The position numbers and the translations under genes are program-made. The notes below the pieces were generated by a model, which was not told the origin of the DNA, did no database searches, and worked only from the letters and a program-made list of their open reading frames with translations. Shown here piece by piece: positions 12,001-48,680 of a DNA stretch of 64,000 nucleotides. The stretch covers positions 7,737 to 71,736 of the forward strand of contig JAQUPI010000003.1 of assembly GCA_028716705.1 (NCBI GenBank), given 5' to 3'. Position 1 is the first letter of the stretch; each line of letters opens with the position of its first letter. Origin of the DNA: Candidatus Omnitrophota bacterium. GTDB lineage: Bacteria > Omnitrophota > Gorgyraeia > Gygaellales > Profunditerraquicolaceae.

Positions 12001-15000
12001 AAAAGCCGCCTCCAAGGGCGATGCTGGGATAAGTCAGATCCTGGGATTGGCGGGCGAATTGTCCGGAGTATATGAGGTGGTTATAAACAGGGGTAATACG
12101 CTGGAAAAAATAAGCCTGGGAGACTTAGAGGCGATAAACCATATTGTTTATGATGATAATGCCGCGAAGAAAGAATTTGACGCGGTCAGCACGAATACTG
12201 TTTTTGAGTTTAAATTCCACCTTACACTGCGTAAGCTTTACCAGCAGGTGATCGGCATAGATTCGGCGCATCTGCCGCACCTGAAGGTGCTGGAAATGTA
12301 TCCCGAGAGATTTTCTAATATACGGAACATTGTTTATTTCGGAGAAGCGGAGAGCGGATACGTAGTAAAGGCGATAACGGCATTTCTTAACAGCCTCTCG
12401 CGTGAGCGCAGGGCTGATATTGTGAAGAGGATAACGATAACCAGGAATAAGGGAGTTTCCATAAAATTAACATTGGCGGAAACGGCGGAATTTCTCTGCG
12501 CCGGATCAACCATGGACTTTGTTATAGAGGAAGGGCGCAGGCACGGGAACGCATTCCCGGTAAGGGATTTTGCGCGTATACGCAATTGCGTAAGAGAGGC
12601 GATAGGAACTAAGATCAGGCAGCTTAGGGAGGGAGAGAAGTTCGATGTAATTATCGGCGTAAGCAGGACTTCCCCTCAAAATATAGAAGGTATCAGCGGC
12701 GTAAAGAGTTCAAGCGCCGCGGAGGCGGGAGAAGCCTCCTTACTCCTGACCAAGCCGGATAATACGGTATTTTTATCCGCTATGCAAAAGGATAGATTCA
12801 CCAGAGACGGGCTTTATACTTTTAAAGATATTATAGCCAGTATTATGGCAGAACCGTTTTCAAGAGCTGCCGCGATGGCGGAAGAAGAAACATTGAATGA
12901 GGCAAACAGTATAAAGCGCAGCATCCCCGGATACGAAGGTTTTGAAATCAGGGATATTATTAAACGAATGGCAAAGACGCCTGAGACATGGGAAGATGTT
13001 TTAATCCAGGATTTAATAGCGTTGAAAAATCTAAGGGAGTTTTACGAAAGGAAAAAATACCTGGAGGAAGCTTCGAGACAGGAGCTGATTAATGAAACTT
13101 ACAACCACGAAGTCCTGATGCGCGCCTGGAATATCGTGAGCAGCCGCGCCGCACAGGAGAGTAAATTACGCACTGCCTTAGAGCACGAAGAAGCCGGTAT
13201 AGCCGCTTCGAAAACAGGGGATTACGCTTATGAAATAGCCGCTTACAGGTTAGCTTTAAATCATCTTCCCCAAGGCGGGAATTTCGCAGCTTACAGGCAG
13301 CGGATTGAAAGCCGGCTTAAGAATGCTATAGAATCGGCAAGGTTGAGAAACCAGGGCAAAGGCAAGATGAATGGGAACACGCGAGGCCAGGGCGGGATCG
13401 GCAACTTAGATGATAATCAAGCAGAAGAGATAAAGGGTTTGATAAGCCAGAATAAACGCAGGCTCCTTCCGGCCGCCAGGAAACTTATAGACTTATTTGA
13501 CGGCGTTCCGGTTAATGTCTATTTTCTCACCAGCCAGATCACCCGCGCCCCGCCGAAGGGCTTCATCTGGGAACAGATCAAAGACGGCGAATTACATATT
13601 TATTTCTCCTCCTTAACCTGCTACAAGCAATACGCTCAGATACCTTCCGCCTTAAATTTCTTCTCCTGTCACGGTACTATCGAAATCAGCACGATGATGC
13701 AAGGGGTTTCCCCCGGGCAGGCGCATACCATCGCCTGGGAAAAGGCTGCCCAAAGATATCCCCAGGCCGCCAGGGAAATAAAGGCGTTGCTTAAGAAGAG
13801 AGTCTGGCGCGAAGACGGCAGGATAAGGGTTTCACAACACAGCTACATCGCCAGGAAGACAAGAGATGTCACCAGGTATGTTTTAAGCGAGGGCGCGGCA
13901 ACCCACAGGACAATGTGGGAGGCATTCCGGGCCGAAGACCACCGTATTGATTCGGAGTTGGAGGACAGGATCAAATGTATCCGCAATATGGGATTGATCT
14001 CGCAAGCGGTCAGATCACTTGAAGGCCAGAAATCGCCATTAAAAGAAGAAGAACGCGGCAAGGTCATAGAGATCGTCCGGGAAATGAGCGCCTCAATGGT
14101 AAAACCCGCGGGCAGGCCGAAGATCTCGGAAAAGATAATCTCGCAGATCCTCTCAATAACCGCTCAGGAATTGATCGACACAGTCCAGGAGCCGCGCCAT
14201 GAAGCCATTGAACTGCTTAAGAACATCCATGAAAACCTGAAGCTGCGCAAAGAAGGCGCCGAAAGGATAATTGCCGGCAGGCGGATTGCGCTTAAGGAAT
14301 TGAGAGAAATGTCCAGGTCTACTAATATGGATATCTCGCGCCGGGCGGAAGCGGCGGCTAAACTGGCGCAAAGCGGCGAATTGAATAAGGCCAAAGGCCA
14401 GATACTGGGCATAACCAGGCTAGGCATTATCAAGGGAGAGCCGGAGTATTCCCCGGTCAAACGTCTGCTCTTTGCGGCCTCAGGCGCCAAGGATGAGAAG
14501 AGGGTTTCTGCGGTCCTGGATATGGTCAAGCAAAAGTTAAGAGAGATCGAGTTTCTTTATGAATTCATGATCAAATACCGCGATGACCTTTTATCCAAAG
14601 AACTTAAGGAAGACGCGCCTGTCGATAAGCAACAGCTCTTGAAGGAGACCTTTGTATTTTTCTGGAAGACTGCCAATTCCGAATTCGCCGATCTGTTGAA
14701 CAGATCGCTGAAACAACGCGCCATCTGGTGGGCTAAGGTATACAGGGCAATTTGTATTTCCCTGAATATCAATGACCCTGAAAACAGGTCGCAGCGGATC
14801 CCCAATCCGGTATTTCTGGGCATAGCGCGCTATATCCGTTTACTGGAATACAATTTTATCGAAGATCTGTTGGGGAAGAGGGACATCGGCGCCAAGGTGA
14901 GGGATATTCTGAAGGAGGCGCAGAGCGAAAAGAGAAAAAGCGGCAATGTAATACGTAAAGAAAATGAGCTTAAAACCTATATTGTCCAGGATGACCTGGA

Positions 15001-18000
15001 TGGATTAGCAGAAGCGATCTCGCAGGATCTCAAATTAAACCCGGGAAAAGAAAGACAGGATCTGCGGGGTTGCGTATGGAAAGAAGACAGGCCCAGGCCG
15101 CAGCAAAGCGCAACCAACGTGAAAACCTTACCCGGTCCTCCCGCTGAAAATGTGGGAGAAAAAGCCGGCGAAAATAAAGAGCCGCAAACAGAACTGCGGC
15201 ATATAAGATCGGTTTTAGGATCCGGCCTGTTCAGGCAGCGTTCTCCGGAAGAGCTAGCGTATATTGAGAGGGACAATTACGAGCGCTTTATGAGAGAAGT
15301 AAGGATGAACTGGGTATATCATAACGCCAAAAACTATATCCTGGAATACGCCAGGGAAATGAACGAATATGAAAAGACCGCCTCAAAGATAAGCGCCTAT
15401 GAGAAAAAGACCCCAAAGAGGAAGAGAAAGATAAGAGGGCAGATATGGTTTCTTCTGAAATGGGCGGCCGAGGGAAGGCATTTTACGAAAATCCAATCCG
15501 AGCGCCTGGCCAGGCTTGTCCCGGCTCCGGAGCCTGTTCCGCAAGACTCAAAGCCCGCATTCGAGCCCAGGCAGTTAAGCTTCGATCTCGGACAGATCAA
15601 ATTCGGCGTTGCCGAAGGCAATATCAACGGCAAGAAAGTTAATTTCCTTGCGGATGGAACCGGCATGACGGATAACCTCTGGATCCCTCCGGTACATTCC
15701 GGTTTTTCAGTTTTCCAAGGAGATTTGGAAAGGTTTATCCGCATGACCCCGGAGAAGTTCACGGCATTGATCCTGGGCTTGCTGGCAGGCAAAGCGCTGA
15801 CCTTGAAGCAGAAAGAAGAGATAGGCGCTTTTTGCTCTGCCATAAAAGAGATTTACGGGTTGAGAGAAAATTATCTTTTTGAGGGCCACTACCCTTATAT
15901 TTGCGACAGTTACGCAAGAAGTACGGCCGAAATACTTCAAAAACACGGCTTGAAAGCCAGAGAACAAGACAGGAGTTGGCCTGAATTGAAACGGGTGCTG
16001 ACCGATCCGGCCGACGATCCCGAGCACCATTTTGTCAGGTGCCGCATAGCCGGGTACAATTTCATCGTCGACATCACCGCTGACCAGTTCGAGAGGGAAG
16101 ATGAAAAGGGCAAATACCAGCAATTAGGCATTGTGGTCCTGCCCGTGCAAGAGGCGCGCAAAGACCCCGCCAGGTTCTGGATGTATAACAGGAAGCTGTC
16201 CGATTCATTCTCCGTTGTTCCGCCGGGGGAACGGCCGGACGCGCTTGGGCAGTTCGCGGAATTCCTAAGGATATTTGAAGAAGAAAAAAGGGAGGCGTTA
16301 GCGGATATCCTCTGGCCTGCCGTTAAAGCCAAAGATAAAAAGAAAGAGGTTTTCAACAGGGAAGATCAAGGGCGGATCTCGAGGTTAAAATACGCCCTGG
16401 CCGAACTGAAGGCAGAGAAGATAAAAGTCTTATCCGTAAAGGAAAAATACCCGTTCGATATAACCGACTCCAAGCTTACATTCGTGGCCGATATGGTTTT
16501 GGATGGCAATAAAGGCAGGTATTTCATAAAGACCCGAAGGACGTGGACGAATGAGCCCGAAGACGATGCCTGCAAAGTGCTGGAAGAATTGTGCCTGCCT
16601 AACTCCGCTACCGTTGTGGTAAGGGATTATTTTGTTTCCAAATACGTGGGCGACGCGGACCTGACATGGGTATCAGCCGAACAGATGAAGAACAGGGAAT
16701 TCAGGAGGGGGCTGTGTTTCGAATTGGGCCGGGCATCGGCAGCGGCTTATATCATAGGGTTAGCAGACAGGTCGCCGACCAACATACGCATATGCATGGC
16801 CAGGGATAAAAAATGCGTTTTGGCGATCAATACCGACTTGACTACCGCCTTCCAGCTGCTTGAGCTGCCTTCTGAAGTGGGCGAGCAGTGCATTATCTTG
16901 AGCTTTCTTTTCAACCTATCAAAAGAAGCAGGATTGGAAAAAGAAGAGTTCAGGTGGATAATCCGTTACTTTATAGAAGGATTCTGCCAGCAATATTCGA
17001 CCACAGGCAAATATTACCTTAAAAACTCCGGCAAGATAGATAATTGGTTATCAAATCTGAAGTATTACCCTCTTGTCAAAAAAAGATTATTGTTGCAGGA
17101 GGAAAAGATCTCAGGGCTTTCACAAGAGATTGAAAATAAGTTCAAGCAGGATTATTGCCGCGATCCGGAACTGATTGGGGACGCGGAAGATATGAAATTG
17201 GAAGTATTGATCCGCATGACCGTGGAAAAAGCGGAAAACCTAGGGATGCCGCTTACGAGATTCGATGAGCTGCTGATAAGGGGCACCGGGCAGCTGGTAA
17301 AAGAAGCGCATAAGGACCAGAAGCGCAAGTCCGGGGAGCCTTATTTTAATCACCAGTTGGAGGTTGCGACAGAGGCAAATAATTTTGACCTGTCGGAGTT
17401 CATAATCAACGGCCTGTATACGCTGATGACCAATATAGCGCTCTTCCATGATACCCGTGAGGACCAGGGTAAATCTTACCGCGAGATCAAGCACGGGATA
17501 GAGAGACGGCTTGAAGAGACAAAGCTGCACAGGACGGGCGAAAAAGAAGCCTTAAGGGCGTATAACCTGCTGCGTTTAGGCGTAGCCATGCTTTCGAAAT
17601 TGGAAGGCGGGGAGTGGAGATGGATTCCGTCGACCCTGGGAACGCGGCCGGATGTTTCCTGCGAACCGGAAGACGGGATAACCCCGGAAGAATTGACGCC
17701 TCCGGCAAGAAAGATCGAAGGCAAAGGCGGCTTGTGGGTTTGGCAAGATATGAGCCCCGGAGAGATCAAGGCGGAGTATTACCGCCGGCTCGTAAACCCG
17801 CGCAGCTTATTTAATAAACATATATTATTCCCCGAGTCGAACCGTTATGCCGACTACAGCGATCTGTTCATCAGAATGATACAGGTGATCAAATTGGCCG
17901 ACCGGATCGCGAATTTCCGCGACCTGGCCAGTTTATTCAAAGCAGGCATGGATATTACAGAGTCAAAGGCCTTTGTAGAGAAGGTTTTCAATGAAACCGC

Positions 18001-21000
18001 GGAATATTTCCTCCCTGCGTTCGTGGAAAGCTCGCAACACCTTACTTTTACCGAAAAAATCAATTTCTATACTATCCTTACAGAGATAATAGACGGATAT
18101 ATCAAGAACGAAGACCCGGCCGCAAAGTGCCTGAAGGATGCGGCCGCGGATTTCAGGCTGAAGATCGAAGTGGTAATACCCGGCCAGGCCGAGGGCACAT
18201 TGTATTATCCTGCGGCGAGAAGAGATTTTAAGACGGTGGCATACTGGCTGGATGTTTTCACGGGGATAAGCACGGTGATCCTGGCTGACCCGCTGGTTTT
18301 CCCGAGGCGTTTAAGGGCGGTCGAGGAACAGGATAAGCGAGCAGAGATAAGCCTGTTCAAAGAAAAACTCCCCGAGGCATTGTTAAGCTCCGGATTCAGG
18401 CTGATTAAATTGCGGGAATTCAAAGATAAGGTCATATTCTACGCCTACTATAAGGCAAGGAAGATAAGATTCAATTATTATTTTCTCGATTATGCCGATA
18501 TGTATTTCAGGTATAAGAAAGGCCTTCCGTCAGTGGTCATCGCCTCCTACGCCGGCTGGATGGGGAATCTGCTCAGGGATTCGAATTTTTATACCAAGAT
18601 ATTAAGCCAGATGCGAAAGCCCGGATATCTCATAGCATACGCCGATTCTTACGAGGAAAGGCCGGAGGCGGTACTGGGAGACATCAAAAGATACGGAATG
18701 ACGCCGGTTAAAGGCAATCTTCCGGCAGGTTGTTATATTTACGTTAAGAAAGATGATTTTGCCTGGGAACAGATATCGGCATTGGAGGAGAGGCCGGGTA
18801 ATGTCAAAGTCGCGCTCAGGACATTAAAAAGCCATTTTTCCGACCGCGGCTGGTTTACCTTGAAAGATTTCCTCGGCAATTTAGATTCGCAGTTCGCAAA
18901 TTACCCGAGAATGAAGAACGGCCATGTCCTGAACAGCCGCAGGGCGATAACCAATCTCTTGAGGTTGAAAGACCGCGGAGTAGAAGTCAGAAATAACGGC
19001 AAGGCTTATGAGTTTCGTTACCGGCAAGAGTCGGGGGAAAAATCCAGGAACTGGCCGAAAAAAGTTCCTTTAAAGGCGAAAGAAAAATACGCGAAAGAGC
19101 CTTCATATGAATACAGGGTCATCGCCGGTTTTGATCTCGATAAGCGCAAGAAAGCCCCGGGTATTTCTTACGAAACGGCCAGGGCAAGAGAAGCGATCAT
19201 GATCAGGCTGCTTAAATTAATAAACAAGACCTCCTTGCCTTTGGCGCCGCCTTTTAATTTAAAGATTTCCCCGCAGATCGACACCTATGCAGGGACAGAG
19301 ATAGAAGGGCAGAATGTCATCCTGCATCCCGCCTTTTTTGAATTATCTGCCGCAATGCAGTTTATTATCCTCTATCATGAAGTAGCCAGCCACCTGAAAA
19401 AAAGGATATCCTCCGAACCCCGCGCGCTTTTTGATACGTTAACCGGCGTCTTGCGCGCCTTGCCTTTCATGTTTAATGCCGAAAAAGAAAGAAGGTTCAT
19501 TAAGGAGGTATTCCGCAGGAACGCCCGTTTCCTGGGAACGGGTAAAAAGAAACATCTGCCTCCCGTAAGCTATGATACGGAATGGCTGATCAGAAGGTTC
19601 GTATGCGGTGACGAAGATATAAAAGCGTTGATCCTCGGACTCTGCAAGCGATATTCCGGATCGCTGCAGAAAGGCCTGAAGCACTATTTTTGCGTCAAAC
19701 CGAGCGCGGAATTACTGGTCACGGTTTTAGTTTATGGCGATAAGTCAAACAGAGCGATCGCCTTGAAATGTATTACGGAGTTTGTTTACTCCTATGGCTT
19801 AGACGAAAAGAAAGTTATCGACGGCTGGTTGCAGGGCGATGACGGGTGGCTTAACAATATGGTCAGCAATATGACTATCCTGGAAAGCCTGGAAAGGGAA
19901 AGGCCGGGATCCGCCAGAGTTTTATTCAGGGAATTCGGGATCGCGGATTTCGGCAGATACAGCCTGGGTATGCTGATCACTCAATACGACGAAAGGGATA
20001 ATGCCGCTTCGCCTTACGGCCTGGTTATCTACCCGAGGCAGGATAATGACATAGAGAACGGCGGCGCCTTCTATAAAGATTCGCAAGTCCTGGATAATCT
20101 GCAAAAACAAGCCGGTGACTGCGGATTACTGTTAAGGGTAGTGGAATGTTCAAGTAAATATGATGTGGCCCGCAGGGTCATCAGGGCATACGAGCGTTAT
20201 GGAAAGATATCTTTCGCGGTCCTTGGAGGGCATGGGACCGAAAATTCAGTACAGTTCGGAAAAGCAAAGGACGCAGGAAGGCTTGTCAAAGGGGACCTGA
20301 GCGGTGCCGCGGAGAAAGCCGCCAAATTCTTTATCCCCGGGCCGTCAGTAATATTATCCTCTTGCTTTACCGGCCGCCCCGGAGGATTCGCCCAGCAATT
20401 ATCGCATGCGCTCTCTGCCACGGTCATTGGCCCGGAAGAATCCACCTTTATAGATAATATCAGTGTTTATGTAGAGGAAGACAGGGCAGCTTTCCAGGTA
20501 GAGTACCGTAAAGGATCCGCGAAGACATACTTAGCAGGAAAGCCGCTTGAAAACCGCTTCGAGGAGAATTCTTCCGCGCCATTGGGAGAATTGGCGGAGG
20601 CCAGAGAAGCGCCTGATAAAGATAACGGCAAGAACAGGGGCGGATCAGGGTCCAGATTCGATTTTGCTCCGGAAATAGACCAGGAGAAAAGAGACCAGCT
20701 AAAGAGTGCCGTTTTGAAAGAGGATTTCCTGAAGAGCAGCGTTAAGAATATCCTGGGGATAGACGGACTGGAGCTGGATGATGTAGAGCGGATTTCGCTC
20801 AGCTTGATAGAGAAGGCCAGGTTTACCGAGGTTTACAGGATGACGCTCAAGACAAAATCCGACGGCTTAAATACCCGGCGCAACGGCGAAAGCGCGTATA
20901 TAGTTTTGAAACAATTCACTGTCGGGGCGACTATGGACGAAAAAACGAACCGCATCAGCCGCCTGAGAAAATTATCATTCGAAAAGAAATCAGGGCTTGT

Positions 21001-24000
21001 TCCAAGGTTCGGAGATTATCTGCCGGAAGAAGAGATATACTCGGTTGAATTCATACCGGGAGCGGATCTGGCAGGAATGTTGCGGCAAAAAGACATCCTG
21101 GAGCAGAAGAAGCGGCATTTAAAGGAGCAGGCGATAGTCCTTGCTCTGCAATTAGCCAAATCTCTGGGAGAGGAAGACCATGCGCTGGAGTTCCTGATAG
21201 AGATGAGGAATCCGGCTAACGTCATGTTCCGCGATGCCGGAGGAAAATGCGAGCAGCCGGTTTGCGTCGATGTCGGATATTTTACGACCAGGGAGCCGCG
21301 CGAAATAATGCTTACCCTGGGAAATTACATAGACGGCATCTATTTTGGGAATAAGGAACCGCAAGAGTTTTTATTTAACGCGGTTTTAAAAGCCCTGGGT
21401 GACGAAGAAGGCTGCGCTTTCCTTAAACAGGCGTTTGACAGCAAGCTTAATTATCACATAAAGGAAGAATTAGACGCGTATTTGAATAAGAAGACCGGAG
21501 TGAGTCTTCAGAAAGAAAAGGTCACCGCTATCTTTAAGGCCATGGCGAGGGGTAGGGCCGCTCCTGCCAACGCTGCCTTCAAGCAGCTCTGCAGGGACTT
21601 CGGTTTTGACCACCGCGACGCGAATGCCGGGCTAAAAGCGTTGATCATCGGGGTAAAGAGAGGTTTTATCGCGGAAAAACTGGATATAAGGCATCTTTCG
21701 GGAAAGATAAGCAAGATAACGGCGATAACCGGGATGCCAATAGAGATGGACATAAATAATTTAGAGAATGACATAATTGACTTGATAGATGCCGGTTATA
21801 CGGAAGAAAAAATAACCATGGAACTACTTATAGATAACGCTTCCTTGGAAGATTACATAAAGCGGATCAACGATAAATTAGACATATCGGCCAGACAGGT
21901 TCCTGAGGCCGAGGTCATAAATTGGGGTAATGAAAAAGAAGATGACGAAGTTCCTCTCTCCCAGGATGAAAAAAAGATATTAAGGGCAAGAGGCAATTCT
22001 TTGAAAGAGATGATGCCTGAGTTAAATATGGGCGGAGCCCAGATCAGCAATCTCATTTCCAGTATTTGCATTAAATTACAGGCGAACAGTTTCTCGGAGG
22101 CAAGAGAGAAATTCTTCTCCTCAGTAAAAGCGTATGTTATAAGCAAGGGGTGCCACTCGCTCATAGCCGAAGAGGTAGTAAGAGACGCGGATCCCCTGAA
22201 AACATCCCAAGTCCTTATGAACGAAAAACAAAAACTGACCGAGCAGGGTTATACGCTTATTTTAGCTTTATTCCTGGCGATAAGAGAAAGAAATTCAAAT
22301 AAGGTTGTGACGCAGGGATTAAAAGAAGCCATAAAAGAATCCTTTGCTACCGGGAATCCCAAGTGCGGCGATTTCCTTAATGAACTCTGCGATATTGCCG
22401 GCAAAGAGCGCATCGTCAGCGAAATAAAAAATATATTATTAACGGACATGGAAATACTGGAAAGGCTCTGCTCGGAAGAAACCCTGTCCAGATTAAATGC
22501 GTTAATTAAAGGTATCGCTCCGCAGATTGTCCTCAGGACAGCAAACCAGGTACGCATTTTAAAAGAAGTCGTGGCTTCTTCCAAAGCTAAGCAGGTATTG
22601 ACTCAGAAAGATATAGCCGGGAAGATCGGTGTTTCCACGGCTACCGTCAGCCGGGACATAAAGATCCTTCAGGAATCCGGATTTATCGATGTCCGCAAGA
22701 TCATCATTGAGAAGAGGGTTTATCTCTTCGGCCAGGCCCCCGAGTTCATCCTTAATGATGCGGAAGGGGCGATCATGAAAGAGTTGGAAAGGGCGAATTT
22801 ACCTTTATCGGCCCGTGAGCTGGCGAAAAACACCGGCTTACCCAAGAACAACATCCGCAGGAATACCAAAAGCCTCAAGAAAAAGGCACCGGTCAAAGAG
22901 GTTCTGATCAATAAGAGCGTCAAATTTTACCTGGGAGATAAACTTCCTAAATTTATCCTTACGCCTATCGAAAAGCGGATCCTGGAAATACTCTGGAGAA
23001 AAGGCCCTTCGACGCAAAAAGAAATAGCCGGGGATGGGATATCAAGCGGCATGGTCAGCGTTTATGCTAAAGAATTAAAGAGTTGGGATTTGATCAAGGC
23101 GCAGGGTGAAGGCAGAAGCAACGTTAAGCTTAGCTTGACTCCGGAAGGAGCGAAATTTATAGCGCCTGAAATAAAGTTCGGAGTGGCGCAAGGTAATATA
23201 GGGGATAAGAAAGTTTATTATTTTGCGGACGGAATTCAGAATGAAGATATGCAAAACGTATGTTTCTTCCAGGGCAACATGATAAAGATATCCGCTGCCG
23301 CTGACAAAGGTAACAAGCTGCCCTTATCAAAAGAATCATTGTCTTTAAGAATCGCGTCTGTAATGGATAAGTTATATGGCTTTACGAGCCTGAAAGAATT
23401 ATCGGGTATCTTAGGCATACCCGATTCTACGCTATCTCCTTACATGAAGCGCTGTTTCAACAGGATAAACAGCAGGCGCAGGAAAAAAGAAGAGCCCGTG
23501 TACCGGGTCTACAACGATAATACGGTGCAGGCGATGAGAAGCGTGATCGCGGTGCTCAAGAAATGGGGAAGGATAACCGTGGAAGAACTGGCTCTGCAAT
23601 TAAGCCAAGGAAATAGATGCGTAGAGAAGAAACAAGTCATTTCCATCGCCGCGAGGATCGATTTTGCCCTGGTGAACTGGTGCATGGTCAAAAACAATGA
23701 AGAGACGATAGGGATCCAGGGGCTTGAGCCGGTATACAACCGCAATAATACGCAAGAAATACTGGCAGGGTTAGGCAAAAAATTCAGAAAAATATCCATG
23801 AAACAGATAGCGGACGCTTTAAGAGGCATGCCTGAATCTAATGTCAGGCGTTTGATAGAGGCGATGCAAAAGGAAGGCACTCTTCCTTTTGAGGAGATCA
23901 TCCCTTACGAATCGGTGCGCAAAGACATAGTATTTAAGGCGATGGAGGAATTGTCCGCGGAGCGGGCCTCCGGATCATCCGCCAAGCAAATAACTGAAAG

Positions 24001-27000
24001 GGCGATAGCCATAGGTTCGGCATTAGGGGTGCCCATATCAAAAGATATCTCGCTAAGGAAGATACGCGCGATAAAAGAGGAAGGTGTGTTGCCGGCCAAG
24101 ATCATCTCCCATCCCAGGACGCAACAACCGCTCCGCAAGGCCAAGACGCCGAAGGTAAAGGCGCGTAAAAGCACTAAGAAAGCGATAGACCTCCGCTCAG
24201 CCGGCGTTTCAGCCCGGGAAGTACCGCTGGTTAAGCCGGCTGATCAGCCCGTACAGGAGCGTGACGCCGCTTGGTATGCGAGCAAGGATTTTGAGGTCGG
24301 GAAAGAAAGAAGGAACGGCTCAGCGCAAAACGGAAATAGAAATACTCTGCCGGAAAAGAATGTGACGATATTTATAAAACAAGTAAATAAAAAGGTGGAA
24401 TTTTCCATAAAAGAAGCGCTTATCTTGATCGCCAAAGGGTATTCGGCTAAAGAGATCCGCGAAGAGATCGGCAACGGCTTGCTTGAAAATCATATCACGT
24501 CATTCAAAATAAGCATCTTTGTGAAATTAAAAGATACGGGCCTGAGGATTATCGCGGAAGATACTTTGGAGTCATTAAATATGGCCAGGACTATATGTTC
24601 GGGACCAGTAAGAGAAGAACTCATAAAACGCGGATATCCATTGCCCGAAAAGCTCGCGGATAAACCGGCCGTATCAATAACCAGCCAGCCCAGGCAGGCA
24701 GGATTTTACGTTAACGGAGTGTTAAGGGCCCAATTCACCGATGCGGTTGATCCGGAAGATTGCTCTGCCAGGCGCATGCTAAGCGGGAATGGAACCTATA
24801 TCTTTGATGCGGGCTGCTTCTGGAGCGCGAGGATAGAGTATCTAAGGAAGATAGGGGCGATGCTTCCGCAGAATAATCAAAGGAAGCGGTGCTTGTACAT
24901 AGCTTCTGCCGCGGACTATTCTACGGCGCAGATAGTATCTGACGGCGCGAAAGAGACTATTTTTGTGGAAAAACTTCCCTTTGAAGGCGTGGCCGGGTTT
25001 CCCGAAGAGGAATTAGAATATTTCAAAAATTCGTACCATATGCAAGGTTTTGACAGCAACTTCCATCACGTATGCAGCCTCGGAAAAGGGATAGGTATAA
25101 AACAGTACCTGCTCTGGGAGCTTGAAGCGATGGGGGTTAAGACGCAAGCCGTAAGCGTTGAATTTGACACAGCCTTAAACGCGCACAGGATGAAATTTAC
25201 TGTCCCGGGCGCATCGCAAGAAAGAAGCATCCTCTATTTTAATACAGAGGCGGAGGCCATAAGCAGGTACCCGCCGTTAGTTGACCTTATCCGCGAAGGG
25301 TTGGATTCTTTTATTATAAAAGCCGCGGTAGATGTTTGTCTCAGCGATGAAACCATAGGTCTGATAGTTACCTCTATGAACCCTGACGGGATGATGTTCT
25401 TAGACGCGAATTTTGCCTTTTTCAGCGGATCCCTGGAGTGGTTAAACGAGGAACAAATGCGGCAGATCAGGGCCTTAGAGAGGGGCCATGGTTTTGCTTT
25501 CGGGTACAAAGAGATAATCCTGGCCAGGCCCAGGAAGCTTTGGGGAATAGGGCCCAGGAAGGCGGGATTTTATATTAATGGGAAACCTGCCGCGCAATTC
25601 ACAGATGCGGTTTCAGAGGATGACGCAGGTTCGGGGCAGCATGGAGCGCAAGGTTCTGTAGGCCCGTCTGCGCACAAAGGGTTAAGGGCGATATGCTTAT
25701 CATTGATCCTTATCTTGTTATCAGCCCGCGCGGGCGCAGTTAATGCGATGATCGACCTGGCGATCCCCATGAAATCCGCCATAGCGAATACTGTTTCCAT
25801 CGAAAGCCTGTCAGTAGATAACGCGACGGTCGGCGAACGCTTCGCCCATAAAGTCGTTCCATGGGATAGGTTTAATGTGTTGGACAGGCCTGTCTCGCTT
25901 GAAGAAAAGGCCCTTTTGAGAAAGTTTTCGCAACCATCTGCCGCCTACGATAATAGCTTCACGCAGCTAGTAGATAAAATATTTGAGAAAGAAGGGTATA
26001 CAGACAACCGTTTAAAGGAGATCGGCAAGGACGACCCGAAAAAACTGGTTCAGCTTATTGCGGAAATTGTCTACAGGAATGTCCAGTACGATCATACAGC
26101 GTTAAAGGCATCGCAAAAATACAATAAGATTTTTACCGCCAATCTTGGCAATAATAATTTAACAGCTCTGCTTGAACAGGGGTTGACCGCGGAAGAAAAA
26201 ACCTTATTAAACAGAAATCTGACAGAAGTCATTAAAGAAGGCGGTTTATGCGATGATATATCCGGAGTATTTTCAGCCGTCGTCGATTATATGCAAAAGA
26301 AGAACGTATTGACTCAAAATTTATATGCCAATAATTTTACCGGCATAAAAATTGATTCCACGAACCCGATGGCTTATCCTTATACAAAAATAGGCTGGCA
26401 TGAATGGAATAGGATATTTACGCTGGACGAATCCGGAAACCTTATATCGACGCATATCGATATAACAATATATAGCCCTTCTTTGACATGGCTAGATTCG
26501 GTTTTAACATTCAAAAAATCCGGATTAAACGCCGTTGATATAAACCACCGCATTAATATGGGTGTATTGTCCGATAAAGGTTTCAAAACAGAGAGGAATC
26601 TGCATTTAGATAATATCCGCCGATATTTTGCGTTCATAAACTCTACCGTTTCCTACGATCCTAAGATACTTTTGCCGATGCATGTACGAAGAAAAGGCAA
26701 GGTTTCTTCAGTTCCCGGCAAAGGCGAACCGGAAGAAGAACCTTTATTCGATAAATTTAAATGTTACAAAATAGAAGATGACGGCAGCCTTACTGTAAGT
26801 TCTGACTACGGATCTTATCAGGACAACATAAAAACAGGGTTGTCCAAATATTCAGAGAAAGTATTTTGCGTTATGGGGATTAACCGGGTTGTCCTCGCGG
26901 AAGTTTGGCCCGGCCTGAATATCAGCTCGCGCCGCTACTGCGATTGCGCAGGCATAGTGATCAAAGACGGGACATGGATGATCGTATTCCACGTATTATC

Positions 27001-30000
27001 CAGCCTTCTCAGAAAGGCCTGGCCGAATATCCTAAAGATCTATAAAGATCGCGCATCCAAAAACGCGGAAGCAGTCATATTTGGTATCGAGCAGGACGTC
27101 CGCTGGATGAAGAAGAATACCCCCCCTGGCGTAAAAATCATTAAAGAAAAGATTAATGCCTATCCTTCTGAGGCGTACGACCTGTACACGGATGCCGATG
27201 AAGGGGTATTGGCAAGAAGCATTAAAGGCCCTTCCGGGATAGAACTGGAAATATATAGAGACGAATTCAGGTTCACTAACATCGCTGAAAGGGATCCTTA
27301 TTCCGAAGACAGAAGCGTCATGGCGGAGGACCTTAAGGAAAATGGCATAAATGACGAAAGAGTATTATCTGCGATCAGAAATATCCCGCGCCATGAATTT
27401 GTCCCTGAAGAAGAGATGAAAGAATGCGCCTACCTTTACGAGAACAGGGCTTTGCCCATAGGCGAAGGCCAGACTATCTCTTCCGCCAATACGGTTGCCA
27501 TGATGACCCAGGCCCTGGGATTAAAAGAAGGCGACAGGGTCCTTGAGGTCGGCACAGGCAGCGGATACCAGGCAGCGGTCCTCGCAGAAATGGTGGGCAA
27601 AACCGGCAGGGTTTACACTATAGAAATAGTAGAGGCATTGCAAAACAGGGCAAGGGATCTGCTGTCCAAGCTTGATTATGACAATATTGAATATAAAGCT
27701 GCCGATGGGTATGAGGGATGGGCCGAAAAAGGGCCGTTTGACGCCATTATCATTACAGCTGCTTGCAGCGAGTATCCATTGCCTTTGATCGGGCAACTAA
27801 GAGAAGGCGCGAATTTAATCTTCCCGCTTGATTCGGGGATCGAAAAGCTTTTGGTCATAAAGAAGGCAGGCAAAGATTTAGAGGTAAGCACTTTAGCAGA
27901 GCGCATTAAATTCGTGCCTTTCGTAAGAGGCGCGGTAAAACTATATCCGCGGCCAGTCCAAACATATAAGAGAACACTCTTTGACGAAAAAGAGTATCTT
28001 TCAGCGAAAAAAGAAGCCGCGCAGAAATTAGCCAAATTAGACCCCCAGGAAGCAATATCTACATTCATCCAAGTTATAGAGAATTCTATTTCTCCTTTGT
28101 CAGAAGTACTGCTGGAACTGGCAGGAAATATCGGCACGCCGGAAGCGGTCGCATTCATTATAAAAGCGTTAAACAACAGGACCATGTCTGTCAGGCAGCA
28201 GGCTATTTCACTTCTGGAGAAGTTTGAAGATGAAAGGATCTATGGGGCATTATTGCCTGTTATTTGTACAGCCGGTGAATCCCTCGTACAGGAGGCGATC
28301 CGCGTGCTCTATTCCAAGAAAGAAAATCCCCTGTACAGAAAAGAAATATTAAAAGCGGTTATCAGCCAGGATCCCGCAACGCGCTTTGGCGCGGCGACTA
28401 TGCTTGCCACGATCATCGATGATGAAACAATGCGGATGTTGGATTTACTCGCCAAATCTGATCCGCAGGAGGAAGTAAGAAAACACGCGAAGTTCGTATT
28501 GGTTTGCGTACAGAGCAGGCTTGAGGAAGACAAATTAACCGCAGGGATAAAATTAAAAGAGGACAAGGTATTATCTCTTATAGATTCGTTCGCTTTTGAA
28601 AAGAAAGCGCCGCTTAAAGCGATCGATATCGGTTCGGGAGCGGGGGAATTCAGGCGTAGAATAAACATCCTTTGGCAGGGAAGGGAGATAGACATTGAAT
28701 GCGTGGATTCAAATAGCGAAGCGGCAAAAATAGGGTTTATCCATTATGGCATGCCGATATTGATAAGGAATGCCGAAGATCATATCTTTGAAGAAAAAAG
28801 TTTTGATATCGCCTTTTTAAACTATCCTAATCCGGGCTACATGAAAGTGTTAAAATTGCTCCCAGAGGCCGAAAGGATACTGCGGGATGGAGGTTTATTC
28901 TTTTTTGCCAGCAGCCGGGACGATTACCAGCCTGAAGAGATAAAGGATATATTGTCAAGGTCGCATTTTGAAATAATAGCTCAATACAACGGAAAAGAAA
29001 ACATACCGGCGGGCTATCCGCTAAGCCAATGCGCGGAGCAGGCAGTTGCATCCGGCAATATCGGTCCGGAGATGGTCTATCTTATAATTGCCCGCAAAAA
29101 TCGTACAGAGCTGTTATTAGGTTCGGGCGCTGTCAAAGATCATCTGAAGGATCCGGGGATTTTATCCGCCAGGCAGGCAGGGTTTTACATTAACGGGCAG
29201 TTAAGAGCGCAATTCACGGATTCGATTTCTGAAGAAGACGCTGCCGTTGGAGATCGCCGGTTCCCGCAAGATCGATTGAGCCCGGGTCCCCAGGTTCCAG
29301 ACGTTGAGATTATCAGGCTCTTATCCGGCAGCGATACGAAAGAGATAGATAGGGCGCTTGAAATCATGGAAAGCATTCACGACCCGGAAAGGGTATCGTC
29401 AATTGTAGAAAAGGTATTTGCCAATCGCCGGCTGGAGCCGGTATTTATGGAGGAGGATAACACATTGGCAATAATCGGGGAAAACAGGAGCCATAAGGGC
29501 ACTTATGAGATCGCGGAATTACAGGGCGAAGATCCATACGTTCATTTCTATAATGCCTGGATATCCGAAGAATTAAGAGGCAAGCGTATCTTGCCGTTAT
29601 TACTGCGTTGGGCAGCCGCTCATGGTTCCTTCCGTAAATTTTCCGGATGGCGGACAGAGGTGGATAACGCCAATTATATGTCAGCCAGGGCTTGGTGGCG
29701 CAGCGGATTTACTGACATCGAACTATTTGAAAGGGAAAGCAAAGAGCCGGTCAGTTCGATAGAGGAGCTTAAGCCTTCAGAAAAACGCTATATTGTAAAA
29801 GCCAGATTCCCGTTATGGACAAAACAGGCCGGCATACCGAATGTGCCTTTTGATAAAGGCGCGGTACGCTTGACATGCAACTTGGGTAACATGCTTCCGG
29901 GCAGTGTAAGCACGGCTTATTTGGCTTTTCCCGATCCCGGTGACCTGCGAGCGCAGGGAAAAGGATTCGCGGAATGCGCTTACAGGATCTTAAGAGAGGG

Positions 30001-32797
30001 CGGAGAGTTTTTGATATATTACGAGGTGCCGATGTCTTCAGCCGCCGTATTCTTATATGAAGAGAACATAGAGGGATTTGTAATATCCCTGAAAAAAGCG
30101 GGCTTTATTGTAGAAGGGCCGGAACATATCCTGTCTTCTGTGAATTATGCCGTAACCATAAGAGCTAAGAAGCCGCGGAAGGAAGACTCAATTTCAGCAA
30201 AAGCGCTGCGGGAGAAAGCCGTCCCGATCCTTTATGATCTGGGGTATTCAAAAGGATCCCTGGATCCGCTGCTAAAGGAACTTGAGACCCTGTTCAAGGA
30301 GATCGATGCCAGAATGGGGCTGGCCAGGCTTCAAAATGAATTAAGCCAGGCCCTGCAAGCGAATAATGCCGCGCGTCTTATAGCCCCTCTTAACGGATTG
30401 AATTCGCTGTTTGAGGAAAACAACTATAAGAACGTTTACCGTCCAAGGCCGATAATAAATCTATTGATCAACGGCTTAAACGCGGAGGATATCTTTGAGC
30501 GCATAATGCAGACCGAGATCCCGACCATGCTCAAGCTTAAAGCCAATGAAACGCTCATTTCCTGCACTGCCATTTCCCAGCTGGGTTACACCGTTTTGAG
30601 GTCATTGGGCGTGGATGCCAAGGGAGCGATCTCCCCAAGGCACGCTTTCCTCGGAATGGAGCTTAGCGGCGGCCGGGTCCTGTTCATTGATTTCTACAGG
30701 AATATATTCCGTGCGGTCAATATCGCCAGGTATTACAGGAAAGAAGGGGTGTATTTTGTCCTTAAGGAAAAATACAGGCTCAGCCGGAAGGAGTTAGGGG
30801 GGATTACGGAAAGAGTTGCCGCTGTTAAGGGCGGAGAAAGAATAACTGTGGTAGAGAGTTTGAGAGGCAACAAACTTCTGCATTGGAAGTTCTTTTACAT
30901 TAAAATGATCAGTTCCGGGGGAGTTTCCCGCCTTATCCATAACAACCTGGGCCTGGCTTACGGGACTCTAGGCATCTATAATGAAGCGATCTTGGCCTGC
31001 AAAAAAGCCATAAGATTGGACCCGAATTACGCGGATGCCTACAACAACCTGGGGATCATTTACGCCCACCTGGGGCAATACGATAAGGCTATCACGGAAT
31101 TAAGGAAGGCAAAGAAATTGAATCCCAACGATAACGGCATCATTTCCAACTTGGATAAGCTTTATGGTATGCAGGGCGGGATAGGCAAAACCAGTTACCT
31201 GGCTGAAGGCGAACCGCTGGGCATAGACACCCCGGCCGTATCTTTAAATAAGATGTTATTAGGCTGGGCAGGAAGATACAGCGAAGATGAGATTTTGATG
31301 CTGATAAAAAAAGCCAAGGCAGAAAAACGCATAAAGAACCCGGGGCTTAAGCTTGGATTACGTTTATGGATGGCGCAAATACGAACCAACACTTTATTAG
31401 AAACCCTGGCCAAACAAGGGCGGATCGCGGGGCCTCCTTTTATCAAGGGTTTCCGGTTGATCATGAATGAGAATAACGCGCTGACATTCGGCGCTTACAT
31501 CAAACAAGGCATCCTTTATATCGAGCAACCCCTCCTTCAAGACCGTTCCCTCGAAGAGATCATCCTGCATGAAAAAATCGAGATTGTTGCCAAAGACCAT
31601 GCGATAGCGCAAGGCCTGACAAGAGAAGTTCTCACCACTTCGCTGCGCGTACATACATCTAATATCAGGCATATCATTGGCACGGTGCTTAAGCACCGTT
31701 ATTTCCCGCTGTCGATTTTTATTTCCATGATCGCGTTTACCGCCCTAATTTTTACCTACAGGGACACGATTATAAATTTGGGCGTTTTTGATTACCGGCT
31801 GGCGGCATTCCTTACTTCGGCAGTGACTAATGCCACCGTTTTTATTCCGGACACAGGCCTTGTTATAATCCTTTCCCTGGCCGCGGCGTATAATCCTGTT
31901 ATAGTGGGGATTATGACCGGTTTGGGAGCGATCACAGCATTGCTTATGACCTATTTTGGAGGCCGCATTATCCGTTCTTTAGTAAAAGGAGACCGCATAG
32001 ACCGTATCGAGCAAAGGGTAAATCACGGGATAGAGAAACGGGGATGGCTCTTTATCCTATTCGCTTACGGCATCCCCATACCTTCTCCCCTTCCTGAGAT
32101 CACGGGCATAGTAGCCGGAGCCACGAAGTTTTCCATTTCCAGATTCCTTATGTTTATCGTATGCGCTACGGCGGGAAATGTGATAAAAAGCGTTTTTTAC
32201 GCCTGTATCGGCGCATGGCTGTTGAATTTATACGGGCCTGCAGTATTGAACTTTTTCAAGGAGAATGTGCTTATCTTCGCGCCTTTAGCGGGAATAGCCG
32301 TGATCTTCATCGCTTTTGTAGCGATCTTAAAGCTGGTCCCGGAAATAAAAAGGATCCCCGCGTTTGCGTCTATAGACAGGTTACTGACAATTGAGGGCAT
32401 AAAGTTGTTGTTTGAGAAATCCGGGCAAGGCATAAGGATTTCGAAGATAAGCGTAAAGAAAATCAGCATAAAGCCGGTCAGGATAATCATAAAGGGAATA
32501 AGGATCAGGGTCAGGCCGTTGAAAATAAAGGTCAGGGCGCTCAGGATAAAGATCAAAAAGTTAAGAATAAAAGTAAAGAGGCTAAAGATAAGTATAAAGA
32601 AGCTGATTATAAAGAAGGGGGGGATTTCGGAGAACCGGGAAGAAAAAGCCTGCCCGGAAAATAATACAAAAAGAACGCAGGAGAAAACTAATAACCAGGA
32701 CCTTGCCATCGAAAATCTGAGCAATGGTATGGAATCTATGCAGGGAGGTAAGACGGCGCAGATAGAGAATGCCACGGTTATTTCCAGCCGGATATAA
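2..32797 (+). CDS. Giant multidomain protein, 5'-partial. The reading frame is open from window position 2. The first start-like codon in the window is GTG at 185. More than 10,930 aa lie in the window.
   Basis: Continuous stop-free frame for 32.7 kb in ~50% GC DNA. Many recognisable protein motifs occur in this single frame (listed as sub-features). The frame is still open at the window start, so the true start lies upstream. Confidence 0.9.
   Translation, partial: [10931 protein letters not shown]
440..960 (+). other. Domain in giant ORF: class I SAM-dependent methyltransferase fold
   Basis: Motif I '[12 protein letters not shown]' (glycine-rich SAM loop) followed by an acidic residue ('VEIDE') and a post-II region, in the usual Rossmann order. 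Confidence 0.6.
5692..7240 (+). other. gpmI: Domain in giant ORF: 2,3-bisphosphoglycerate-independent phosphoglycerate mutase (iPGM/GpmI-like), apparently full length
   Basis: '[10 protein letters not shown]', '[22 protein letters not shown]', '[10 protein letters not shown]', 'TSHTLNPV' and the C-terminal '[23 protein letters not shown]' match the iPGM family signatures in correct order over ~515 aa. Confidence 0.85.
7255..7790 (+). other. Cluster of ~4 predicted transmembrane helices inside the giant ORF, immediately after the iPGM domain
   Basis: Hydrophobic stretches '[40 protein letters not shown]', '[16 protein letters not shown]' and '[17 protein letters not shown]'. Confidence 0.5.
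10175..10198 (+). other. CxxxCxxC motif (radical-SAM-like [4Fe-4S] cluster motif) in the giant ORF
   Basis: In-frame 'C-S-V-Q-C-D-Y-C'. It is a single motif and no further radical-SAM landmarks were recognised. Confidence 0.3.
17300..17935 (+). other. Domain in giant ORF: RelA/SpoT-type HD ((p)ppGpp hydrolase-like) domain
   Basis: '[14 protein letters not shown]...[10 protein letters not shown]' and downstream '[13 protein letters not shown]' mirror the SpoT/RelA HD-domain blocks ('GEPYI.HPL.VA', 'LLHDVVEDT', 'IKLADRLHNMRTL'). Confidence 0.6.
20000..20470 (+). other. Domain in giant ORF: CHAT / caspase-like (clan CD) peptidase-like segment
   Basis: '[12 protein letters not shown]' (His block) and '[14 protein letters not shown]' (Cys block) resemble the His/Cys dyad motifs of CHAT domains. 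Confidence 0.35.
22580..23150 (+). other. Three helix-turn-helix / winged-helix DNA-binding-like motifs inside the giant ORF
   Basis: '[30 protein letters not shown]' (DeoR-like HTH), '[24 protein letters not shown]', and '[39 protein letters not shown]' (MarR/TrmB-like wHTH). Confidence 0.45.
26238..26475 (+). other. Domain in giant ORF: transglutaminase-like cysteine-protease core (C...H...D)
   Basis: '[17 protein letters not shown]...[23 protein letters not shown]' shows the Cys / His-x-Trp / Asp spacing of the transglutaminase-like superfamily. Confidence 0.3.
27340..27935 (+). other. pcm: Domain in giant ORF: protein-L-isoaspartate O-methyltransferase (PIMT/Pcm)
   Basis: '[15 protein letters not shown]', '[19 protein letters not shown]', '[19 protein letters not shown]' and 'GRVYTIEI' match PIMT blocks in order. 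Confidence 0.8.
28045..28515 (+). other. HEAT-like helical repeats in the giant ORF
   Basis: Repeated '[25 protein letters not shown] / [10 protein letters not shown] / [13 protein letters not shown] / EEVRKHA' helical-pair pattern typical of PBS-lyase/HEAT repeats. Confidence 0.45.
28600..28990 (+). other. Second class I SAM methyltransferase-like domain in the giant ORF
   Basis: '[11 protein letters not shown]', an acidic residue at 'IECVDS', and 'FDIAFLNYP...[10 protein letters not shown]' are in the usual motif I / II / post-III order. Confidence 0.45.
29461..29735 (+). other. GNAT-like acetyltransferase segment in the giant ORF
   Basis: '[41 protein letters not shown]' resembles the GNAT motif A region (R/Q-x-x-G-x-G/A-like with the following helix). 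Confidence 0.3.
30925..31160 (+). other. TPR repeats (about 2.5) in the giant ORF
   Basis: '[63 protein letters not shown]' fits the canonical 34-aa TPR consensus. Confidence 0.7.
31690..32365 (+). other. C-terminal multi-pass TM block with DedA/SNARE-associated-like signature in the giant ORF
   Basis: Several hydrophobic helices plus '[48 protein letters not shown]', which resembles the DedA/TVP38 family core. Confidence 0.4.
32400..32625 (+). repeat. Periodic K/I/R-rich low-complexity tail near the C-terminus of the giant ORF (in-frame ~9-nt periodic DNA repeat)
   Basis: '[60 protein letters not shown]'. The DNA shows repeated AGGATAAAG-like units. Confidence 0.8.
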
Positions 32798-48299: not shown

Positions 48300-48629
48300 A
48301 TGGACGACCGTAGGGTTTTTGAGCGCATCGGCACGAAGCTGCCCGTCAGATTCTTAGACCCCATAAGCGGCAAAGAAGGTACCGCGGATACAACTGATAT
48401 CAGCGCCAACGGCCTTGGTATGGTGACCAATGAGAGCTTAAGAACCATGACTCCTTTAGAGATGTGGCTGGGAATCCCCGATAAACACGAGCCCCTTTAT
48501 ACGCGAGGCCAGGTAGTCTGGTCAGAATCCCTCCCCAGTTCCGGAGAATACCGCATCGGCATACGGCTGGAAAAAGCAGAATTAATGGGCTTAGCCAGGG
48601 TGTTATGGCTTAAGAGGCGCGCAGGTTAA
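48300..48629 (+). CDS. Single-domain PilZ protein, a paralog of the one at 32849-33178
   Basis: RBS AAGGAGG. Motifs 'RRVFER' and 'DISANG'. The sequence is colinear with the first PilZ, including the shared C-terminal 'EKAELMG.ARVL'. Confidence 0.8.
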   Translation: MDDRRVFERIGTKLPVRFLDPISGKEGTADTTDISANGLGMVTNESLRTMTPLEMWLGIPDKHEPLYTRGQVVWSESLPSSGEYRIGIRLEKAELMGLARVLWLKRRAG

Positions 48630-48680
48630 GCGCAGTTTCCGGCGACAGGAACCCTTAACCTCTTTGGGAAAATTGATAGT

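Follow-up and report, generated by a model that had tools for sequence, protein, structure and literature searches.

The giant proteins of Omnitrophota have been described as an 'Archaeovorin' type (West-Roberts et al., 10.1101/2023.11.21.568195) and as a 'multi-enzyme metabolic cluster' class (10.64898/2026.06.07.730766). Both papers deal with domain content and topology, state that cleavage points are not known and leave the matter of cleavage open, and term searches of the two returned no report of recurrent junction peptides. Proteins of this kind run to 10,000–150,000 residues and might act as single chains or be divided by cleavage; a public catalogue holds 5,761 Omnitrophota proteins with 10,000 residues or more. 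Here we analyse a 64,000-nt stretch of contig JAQUPI010000003.1 from a Candidatus Omnitrophota bacterium (assembly GCA_028716705.1; the whole stretch is referred to as the window), which is dominated by one uninterrupted open reading frame (ORF) of 10,870 amino acids on the forward (+) strand, at 185..32797, below called the host ORF. We find that two short peptide motifs recur within this ORF as true internal repeats, and that placement at junctions between its modules has good support for all copies but one. Tentatively, and at well under even confidence, we suggest that a common partner reads the motifs as short linear recognition peptides, a role in docking or assembly being slightly favoured over one in cleavage.

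Motif 1, with the consensus P/A-R-[QK]-A-G-F-Y-[VI]-N-G-x3-A-Q-F-T-D-[AS]-[VI]-x-x-[ED]-D, is present in three copies, all on the + strand: copy 1a, PRQAGFYVNGVLRAQFTDAVDPED (24689..24760, aa 8169–8192), copy 1b, PRKAGFYINGKPAAQFTDAVSEDD (25553..25624, aa 8457–8480), and copy 1c, ARQAGFYINGQLRAQFTDSISEED (29168..29239, aa 9662–9685). Motif 2, with the consensus I-K-F-G-V-A-[EQ]-G-N-I-x2-K-K-V-x3-A-D-G, is present in two, again on the + strand: copy 2a, IKFGVAEGNINGKKVNFLADG (15596..15658, aa 5138–5158), and copy 2b, IKFGVAQGNIGDKKVYYFADG (23171..23233, aa 7663–7683). From one copy of motif 1 to the next the distance is 288 and then 1,205 residues, and the two copies of motif 2 are separated by 2,525. 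These five occurrences had first been picked out in a sequence-only reading of the window, and self-BLAST and hidden Markov models (HMMs) recovered every one of them where that reading had placed it and in the frame of the host ORF. When the ORF was compared with itself by BLAST as overlapping 200-residue pieces, the motif pairs were the sole significant off-diagonal matches (43.1, 42.4 and 38.5 bits for the motif 1 pairs and 38.1 for the motif 2 pair, with the next best match at 24.6), and when the residues were shuffled 40 times the top off-diagonal match averaged 27.2 bits (standard deviation 2.3, maximum 34.7) against the observed 38–43. AQFTD is, moreover, the sole 5-mer that occurs three times in the ORF (expected 0.002). 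No additional copy was found with HMMs of both motifs in the six-frame translation of the whole window. A motif-2-like string in the neighbouring 2,500-residue ORF, LRFGEANGF, scored 28 bits, which is within shuffle noise, and was discarded. The repeated unit comprises merely some 24–27 residues, and over the 24 codons on each side of it only 0–3 of 24 amino acids are identical and nucleotide identity is at the random level (25–26%). The basic/Pro-rich upstream and acidic downstream flanks that had also been proposed are present, if less clear at motif 2.

The core DNA of the motif copies is 62–74% identical and differs mainly at third codon positions. Codons differ between copies at 8 of the 13 residues that are invariant in motif 1, and at 8 of the 15 that are identical in motif 2. 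By the Nei–Gojobori method, synonymous divergence (dS) over the 24 codons of motif 1 is 0.9–1.9 with a ratio of nonsynonymous to synonymous divergence (dN/dS) of 0.10–0.25, and for motif 2 dS is saturated. No RNA fold common to the three motif 1 loci was found (z-scores +0.8, −0.6 and −1.7). Because synonymous sites have diverged, codons differ and no common RNA fold is present, we conclude from the codon comparison that the copies are old and that purifying selection maintains them as peptides and not as DNA or RNA. We considered whether the motifs could nevertheless be a nucleic-acid element inserted in frame, whether a mobile repeat, a regulatory RNA inside the gene or a site of recombination. 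The remaining identity of the core DNA would speak for this, as would the position of motif 1a in a stretch that exceeds its counterpart in the homologue P0001 by about 43 residues. We give the idea almost no credence, since besides the third-position differences, the codon differences and the missing common fold, the DNA pattern is absent elsewhere in the source metagenome and in other metagenome records: a degenerate DNA pattern for G-F-Y-x-N-G-x3-A-Q-F-T-D, run against 241 million metagenome records, matched the source contig only, at the three motif 1 copies already known. An RNA element was rejected as the three motif 1 loci fold differently and with a stability that is not unusual, and so was a recent DNA duplication or in-frame mobile repeat of the Rickettsia palindromic element (RPE) or miniature inverted-repeat transposable element (MITE) kind, in view of the synonymous divergence, the lack of a common fold and the lack of copies elsewhere in the DNA pattern scan.

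The position of the motifs relative to the modules of the host ORF is clearest around copies 1a and 1b. A phmmer/HMMER scan of aa 7640–8839 against 1.84 billion representative proteins gave 37 hits, and 27 homologous segments are restricted to aa ~8203–8450, that is, to exactly the part between motif 1a and motif 1b. According to phmmer, alignment, AlphaFold and Foldseek this part is a class I methyltransferase-fold (Rossmann-like) module (24800..25546, + strand, aa ~8206–8454). When the window sequence was aligned with 18 of the homologous segments (19 sequences; A6), the conserved block spanned from 'R.EYL' to the last strand 'FGY....h.K'. About 10 residues separate the end of motif 1a from the module, and motif 1b starts some 3–5 residues after its last conserved strand; nothing motif-like is found in the A6 homologues at the positions of 1a or 1b. 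The free-standing homologues P0008, P0011 and P0015 (450–500 residues) begin with Met at the module boundary. AlphaFold2 on the 19-sequence alignment predicted the module with a predicted local distance difference test (pLDDT) score above 90 (model mean 76), where a 2-sequence alignment had given an uninformative pLDDT of 34.5, and the best Foldseek matches of the module are class I S-adenosylmethionine (SAM) methyltransferases, Dot1L and NNMT (probability 0.9–0.99). Motifs 1a and 1b have a pLDDT of 38–45 in this model and are not packed on the module, and a 2+2-residue hairpin is predicted at Y-[VI]-N-G-x-x, centred on the invariant Asn-Gly (Y-V/N-G/V-L in 1a, Y-I/N-G/K-P in 1b). In the model both copies lie outside the neighbouring folds, as low-confidence NG-turn hairpins in the linker. 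We also note that in P0007 (2,571 residues) the last-strand region of the module, 'FGYGR.EII' (aa 447–483), is repeated as an isolated piece of 32–37 residues after a membrane segment, at aa 823–859.

A hydropathy scan revealed a signal-anchor-like hydrophobic segment, HKGLRAICLSLILILLSARAGAV (25667..25753, + strand, aa ~8495–8523), 15–40 residues after motif 1b, in which an Ala-x-Ala pattern can be read by eye; a hydrophobic segment occupies the corresponding position in P0004, P0018, P0029, P0031 and P0037, which are homologues of the module that follows, and in P0003. Upstream of motif 1c lies a Methyltransf_11 module (28625..28906, + strand, aa 9481–9574 matched; Pfam PF08241, E 3.5e-11), the motif being about 88 residues past the end of the match, and a Pro-rich/acidic linker comes then. 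Motif 2b directly follows a triple winged-helix module (22532..23113, + strand, aa ~7450–7643; Pfam HTH_24, MarR and IclR-type) that is homologous to aa 2916–3105 of P0039. Downstream of motif 2b is a module (23324..24004, + strand, aa ~7714–7940) which BLAST and phmmer matched to residues 4–219 of P0034 and residues 823–1000 of P0016, and P0034, a homologue of 496 residues, starts about 20–30 residues past the motif. In P0034 this module is joined directly to a DedA-type membrane part (54% identity to aa 10488–10578 of the ORF), an architecture that points to the reshuffling of modules between small and giant proteins. Motif 2a is preceded by a Pro-rich stretch, with a Cys...His...Asp pattern about 70–150 residues downstream. 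The suggestion that the motifs sit at module boundaries is, in this way, well supported for 1a, 1b, 1c and 2b, by homologue alignment, by Pfam and, for 1a and 1b, by AlphaFold. The neighbouring modules of the three motif 1 copies have no detectable mutual homology.

Outside the host ORF the motifs were not found in the data available. Profiles of motif 1 and motif 2 matched nothing among 5.8 billion proteins, even at E<=10, and neither motif is present in any of 58 module homologues that we collected; judged from these homologues, the adjacent modules would work in other proteins without the motifs. The collections searched held no ortholog of the whole ORF, the segment aa 8101–9040 found a single partial homologue, and a scan of genome contigs returned only the contig of that homologue. 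The motifs are restricted to the host ORF in these data and are new at sequence level. Pfam searches with single peptides gave nothing for motif 1 and one noise match for motif 2. Concatenation of the three real motif 1 copies gave sub-threshold matches to Laminin_G_3 (21.2 bits) and PAAR (12.4 bits, E 0.19), and an artificial concatenation of motif 2 gave 15.6 bits with Choline_bind_3 and choline-binding repeats against a cut-off of 27. We take these weak similarities to reflect a generic strand / N-G turn / strand likeness and not family membership.

The likeness to PAAR repeats (PF05488) led to one further candidate, namely a split PAAR-like domain or three-hairpin clasp in which motif 1 hairpins up to 1,500 residues apart assemble and pin the C-terminal modules. 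Motif 1 and PAAR share the strand / N-G turn / strand pattern, the number of copies is exactly three, copy 1b contains INGKPAA, which is the PAAR-repeat core, followed by x-x-D, copy 1b tripled artificially reaches 34.8 bits with PF05488, and the best PDB sequence match of the motif 1 profile is the PAAR protein gp5.4 of phage T4. That match is, however, not significant (E 0.13), the natural copies stay well below the 27-bit threshold, all of them have Gln where PAAR has Arg, and they are non-contiguous, dispersed over 1,500 residues as opposed to one domain of ~90–100 residues, so we regard the clasp as very improbable. A similar limit holds for the choline- and cell-wall-binding repeats (PF19127, PF01473): motif 2, with G-N-I-N-G-K-K-V-x-F/Y-x-x-D-G, resembles their G-W-x-K-x-x-G-K-W-Y-Y-F hairpin unit, but it scores below the cut-off, forms no tandem arrays and lacks the aromatic signature.

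A less exotic possibility is that the motifs are leftovers of old internal duplications, each kept as a locally needed stable hairpin for linker rigidity or folding and with no common partner. All copies are within one ORF, the matches to generic hairpins are weak (Laminin_G_3 at 21 bits, Choline_bind_3 at 15.6, PAAR at 12.4), and homologues manage without the motifs, all of which would fit. On the other hand, 13 invariant residues across saturated synonymous divergence, with randomised flanks, go far beyond what a generic hairpin needs, and duplication finds no echo in the neighbouring modules of the three copies, which are not detectably homologous. We consider this explanation quite unlikely.

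We instead favour recognition peptides, in the tentative sense given above. Each motif would be an element of about 20–25 residues able to form a small beta-hairpin at an Asn-Gly (or Gly-Asn/Gly-Asp) turn, embedded in otherwise unconserved flexible linkers between enzyme modules, and one common partner would read all copies of one motif. The partner would most likely be found within the protein itself, as a module that binds peptides (a HEAT or TPR scaffold, say) or an enzymatic one (for example a papain-like module), and its binding would dock or order the adjacent modules, within one molecule or between copies; the nearest alternative is that this recognition would serve limited proteolysis at or near the motif sites. 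Strong constraint on the peptide at some 13 positions, location in flexible linkers and restriction to a single protein together suggest recognition motifs with a co-evolving partner. HEAT and TPR, as peptide-binding scaffolds, are encoded within the same ORF, and we count in favour of recognition, as a parallel case, that P0039 has a repeat of its own at two distant junctions (see below). Since the scan of metagenome DNA found motif 1 only in the source contig, a general cellular sorting signal is disfavoured. Docking is preferred over cleavage because at least 20 conserved residues with hairpin propensity would suit binding rather than a protease site, and because no protease family is detectable in the Pfam searches. 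These searches were made at E<=0.1 for aa 2401–7400, 8501–9050 and 9666–10500 and at E<=0.001–0.01 for the remainder (aa 1–2400, 7401–8500, 9051–9665 and 10501–10870), one list giving the best 25 of 48 families.

Several points weigh against the recognition reading. The motifs are found at only five of the many junctions of the ORF and no other recurrent peptide marks the rest; the copies are few (three and two); and the hairpins are predicted at low confidence only. Homologues permit a comparison at one junction only, and there the neighbouring module does without the motif. The partner of the motifs is putative, and sequence alone does not separate docking from cleavage or modification. With so small a copy number and no orthologs in the collections searched, a function in docking or cleavage is only proposed here.

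Polyprotein-type processing, in which a protease recognises the motifs and cuts at the junctions, is the use suggested by the sequence-only reading beside docking, and we regard it as possible but doubtful. The protease could be a separate enzyme or one of the papain/transglutaminase-like modules that the ORF may contain, and the cuts would, with the same degree of doubt, set free such units as the methyltransferase-fold module and a papain-like module with a membrane anchor. That the junctions coincide with the N-termini of the free-standing proteins P0008, P0011, P0015 and P0034 argues for processing, and so does the signal-anchor-like hydrophobic segment with its Ala-x-Ala pattern after motif 1b. 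Three candidate Cys/His modules are found in the ORF (aa ~5200–5340, 8540–8850 and 10100–10200), two of them 70–200 residues past motif copies. One of these candidates, a papain/transglutaminase-like module at 25802..26734 (+ strand, aa ~8540–8850), is recognised by a sequence pattern with invariant Cys and His; an alignment of nine homologues (A7; P0004, P0018, P0028–32, P0035 and P0037) has invariant G148, C150, D152 and H200, and the module has no Pfam match and no PDB sequence match. The module after motif 2a has a weak Pfam match to the papain-fold toxin family Tox-PLDMTX (E 0.026). The transglutaminase-like segments of the sequence-only reading accordingly hold up in their invariant Cys/His and Cys/His/Asp patterns and fall short in Pfam and PDB, where no sequence match was obtained for aa 8540–8850; judging by the patterns, transglutaminase-like modules in the ORF are plausible. 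Two companion proposals fared less well: no CHAT family was matched by Pfam in the parts scanned at E<=0.1, nor is one among the matches listed for the parts scanned at the stricter thresholds, and the proposed HExxH protease-like segment comes down to one HExxH at aa 383, about chance level, with no peptidase family among the Pfam matches listed.

Processing would also be in keeping with recurrent junction peptides that differ between relatives, as expected of co-evolving protease/site pairs, and West-Roberts et al. (10.1101/2023.11.21.568195) raise cleavage as an open question for the Omnitrophota giants, with no cleavage points known. Against it, no peptidase family, C39 and S8 included, is among the Pfam matches listed, the scan at E<=0.1 covering aa 2401–7400, 8501–9050 and 9666–10500; protease sites do not usually have 20 or more conserved residues and a hairpin; just five junctions are marked; and an odd topology, with SAM-dependent enzymes following a single hydrophobic segment, is left unexplained.

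The relatives deserve comment in this respect. P0039 (MBU0548878.1), a fragment of 3,148 residues from an Omnitrophota metagenome-assembled genome (MAG), has four modules in common with the host ORF in a different order, and a private 35-residue repeat, RGL[FY]G.GARERV.RRTG.IDYLLEA..SA.RAGL, at aa 1255–1289 and 3113–3147 (77% identity, 60.8 bits). The two copies are 1,858 residues apart and the second is directly after the triple winged-helix module, the junction that motif 2b occupies in the host ORF. Another part of P0039, aa 2750–2777 (SSQPRIIRGSINGKEVNYTDRVSGE), was tried as a relative of the motifs and is kept as a lead only, with −2.1 bits in a leave-one-out HMM and a BLAST E of 0.13; it is found in a linker that follows a winged-helix module and appears by eye to stand between motif 1 (SQPR...[IV]NG...[FY]TD.V) and motif 2 (G.INGK.VN[FY]). 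In P0027 (MBI4981760.1, also from an Omnitrophota MAG) the exact pentapeptide ASSAV occurs four times (Bonferroni-corrected P 4e-5) and SSA[VI] eight times, at aa 391, 686, 1385, 1635 and other positions. They are found in low-complexity linkers, among them both flanks of its copies of the methyltransferase-fold module that motif 1 brackets in the host ORF. We rejected a general 'punctuation' rule, as the further patterns [DN]GG (P0020, P0024), W[QYS]C (P0009) and [DE][EQ]AM[FL]V (P0017) are post hoc and fail a corrected k-mer scan; by-eye patterns have small nominal P values, and after Bonferroni correction of exact k-mers just ASSAV in P0027 and AQFTD survive outside duplicated modules. Short long-range repeats at E<1e-3 are found in few of about 20 long homologues and most show none. 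Protein-specific junction peptides thus exist in a few relatives and are not a demonstrated rule. The broader idea that some Omnitrophota giants use protein-specific 'punctuation' peptides at their module junctions as self-recognition sites for processing, as a cellular counterpart of viral polyprotein maturation, strikes us as unlikely, and to the same extent so does its corollary that motifs 1 and 2, the 35-residue repeat of P0039 and ASSAV of P0027 are lineage-specific versions of one strategy.

The motifs could also be sites of covalent modification or cross-linking for enzymes embedded in the same protein. In one variant the Gln of AQFTD and the Lys-Lys of motif 2 would be acyl donor and acceptor for the transglutaminase-like modules; in another the invariant Asn-Gly and Asp-Gly would be isoaspartate-forming sites handled by the embedded protein-L-isoaspartate O-methyltransferase (PCMT); and in a third the motifs would be substrates or pseudo-substrates of the flanking methyltransferase-fold modules. 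Suitable residues are present, namely invariant R, Q, N-G and D in motif 1 and K-K and D-G in motif 2, a class I methyltransferase-fold module adjoins every copy of motif 1, candidate Cys/His modules are there, and Pfam finds a PCMT domain with E 2.7e-54 (aa 9045–9248, window 27317–27928), positioned between motif 1b and motif 1c. This case is purely circumstantial. NG and DG are the commonest dipeptides of hairpin turns, and their frequency in the ORF is unremarkable, with no enrichment or depletion; given how many methyltransferase modules the region holds, adjacency is expected; and the transglutaminase fold lacks Pfam or PDB sequence support. We therefore think modification improbable, and return to docking as the use that we prefer for the recognition peptides.

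The host ORF itself is, by its predicted domains, an Omnitrophota giant protein of the multi-enzyme type. It exceeds 10,000 residues, combines many distinct enzyme and scaffold domains and has hydrophobic (transmembrane) segments, and we assign it to this type because its domains are tiled and because homologues of its modules come mainly from Omnitrophota MAGs: the named ones are nearly all from Candidatus Omnitrophota MAGs, one module being found also in a MAG labelled Altiarchaeales. The Pfam domains include, in addition to those above, a DOT1-like methyltransferase (aa 101–217), a complete cofactor-independent phosphoglycerate mutase (iPGM; Metalloenzyme and iPGM_N, E 1e-82) at aa 1839–2338 (window 5699–7198), winged-helix (wHTH) repeats at aa ~7450–7640, Methyltransf_11 at aa 9481–9574, TPR at aa ~10250–10316, a VTT/DedA membrane domain at aa 10558–10676, and HEAT repeats (aa ~9274–9440) too. 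The part from aa 2400 to aa 7400 is mostly without a Pfam match. Besides the DedA part, the hydropathy scan finds hydrophobic segments at aa ~2373–2493, which come straight after the embedded iPGM, at aa 2974–2992 and at aa 8502–8520. The heptapeptide NAGLKAL occurs twice in the ORF, at aa 2707–2713 and 7147–7153 (window 8303–8323 and 21623–21643), in contexts that are otherwise unrelated.

Next to the host ORF are a 2,500-residue fusion of PFK, aldolase-like, GAPDH and PGK parts (34906–42408) and a 1,895-residue PPDK-like ORF (42454–48141), and farther downstream there are sugar transporters, a GH2 enzyme and a ROK kinase. The two large neighbours have a common C-terminal module of about 230 residues (53% identity), and signal-peptide-like N-termini can be read by eye on them and on the ORF at 33393–34916. 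With the iPGM of the host ORF and the fusions beside it, much of lower glycolysis is encoded within giant proteins. Identical DNA was found on JGI contig Ga0265297_10001711 of metagenome 3300029288, and a small PilZ-domain gene at 8327–8656 of the JGI contig (window ~48300–48630) is located between the PPDK-like ORF and an ABC sugar transporter.

For the question of whether such giants are cut or assembled, the five precisely mapped peptides, which are maintained by selection, are specific candidate sites. Should they serve as signals for docking or processing, they would account for the organisation of a multi-enzyme chain that includes glycolytic enzymes, and they would supply a rule for dividing giant proteins into units for structure prediction.

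In comparison with known systems, the host ORF is most like the Omnitrophota giants: it is longer than 10,000 residues, its methyltransferases, HEAT and TPR repeats and glycolytic enzymes are tiled, it has a few transmembrane segments and it is unique in sequence, and PPDK and glycolytic fusions adjoin it and its homologues come from Omnitrophota MAGs. It differs in that the C39, S8 and SecA-like domains highlighted there are not among the Pfam matches listed for the host ORF. Viral polyproteins, such as those cut by potyvirus NIa or coronavirus 3CL, have cleavage sites of 4–8 residues at most junctions and an identifiable protease. The motifs resemble such sites in being short, protein-specific and located at the junctions of one long product, and in both cases the motifs vary by lineage, whereas here at least 20 residues are conserved, five junctions are marked and no protease family is among the Pfam matches listed. 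The docking elements of polyketide synthases and nonribosomal peptide synthetases (PKS/NRPS), finally, comprise docking domains as well as short linear motif/beta-hairpin pairs and are found at the termini of separate polypeptides, each paired with a complementary docking domain. The motifs of the host ORF differ from them in being all internal to one ORF and in having a partner domain that is putative, and are like them as short, partner-specific peptides embedded in linkers, some of them beta-hairpins, that in the megasynthases order the modules and may do so here.

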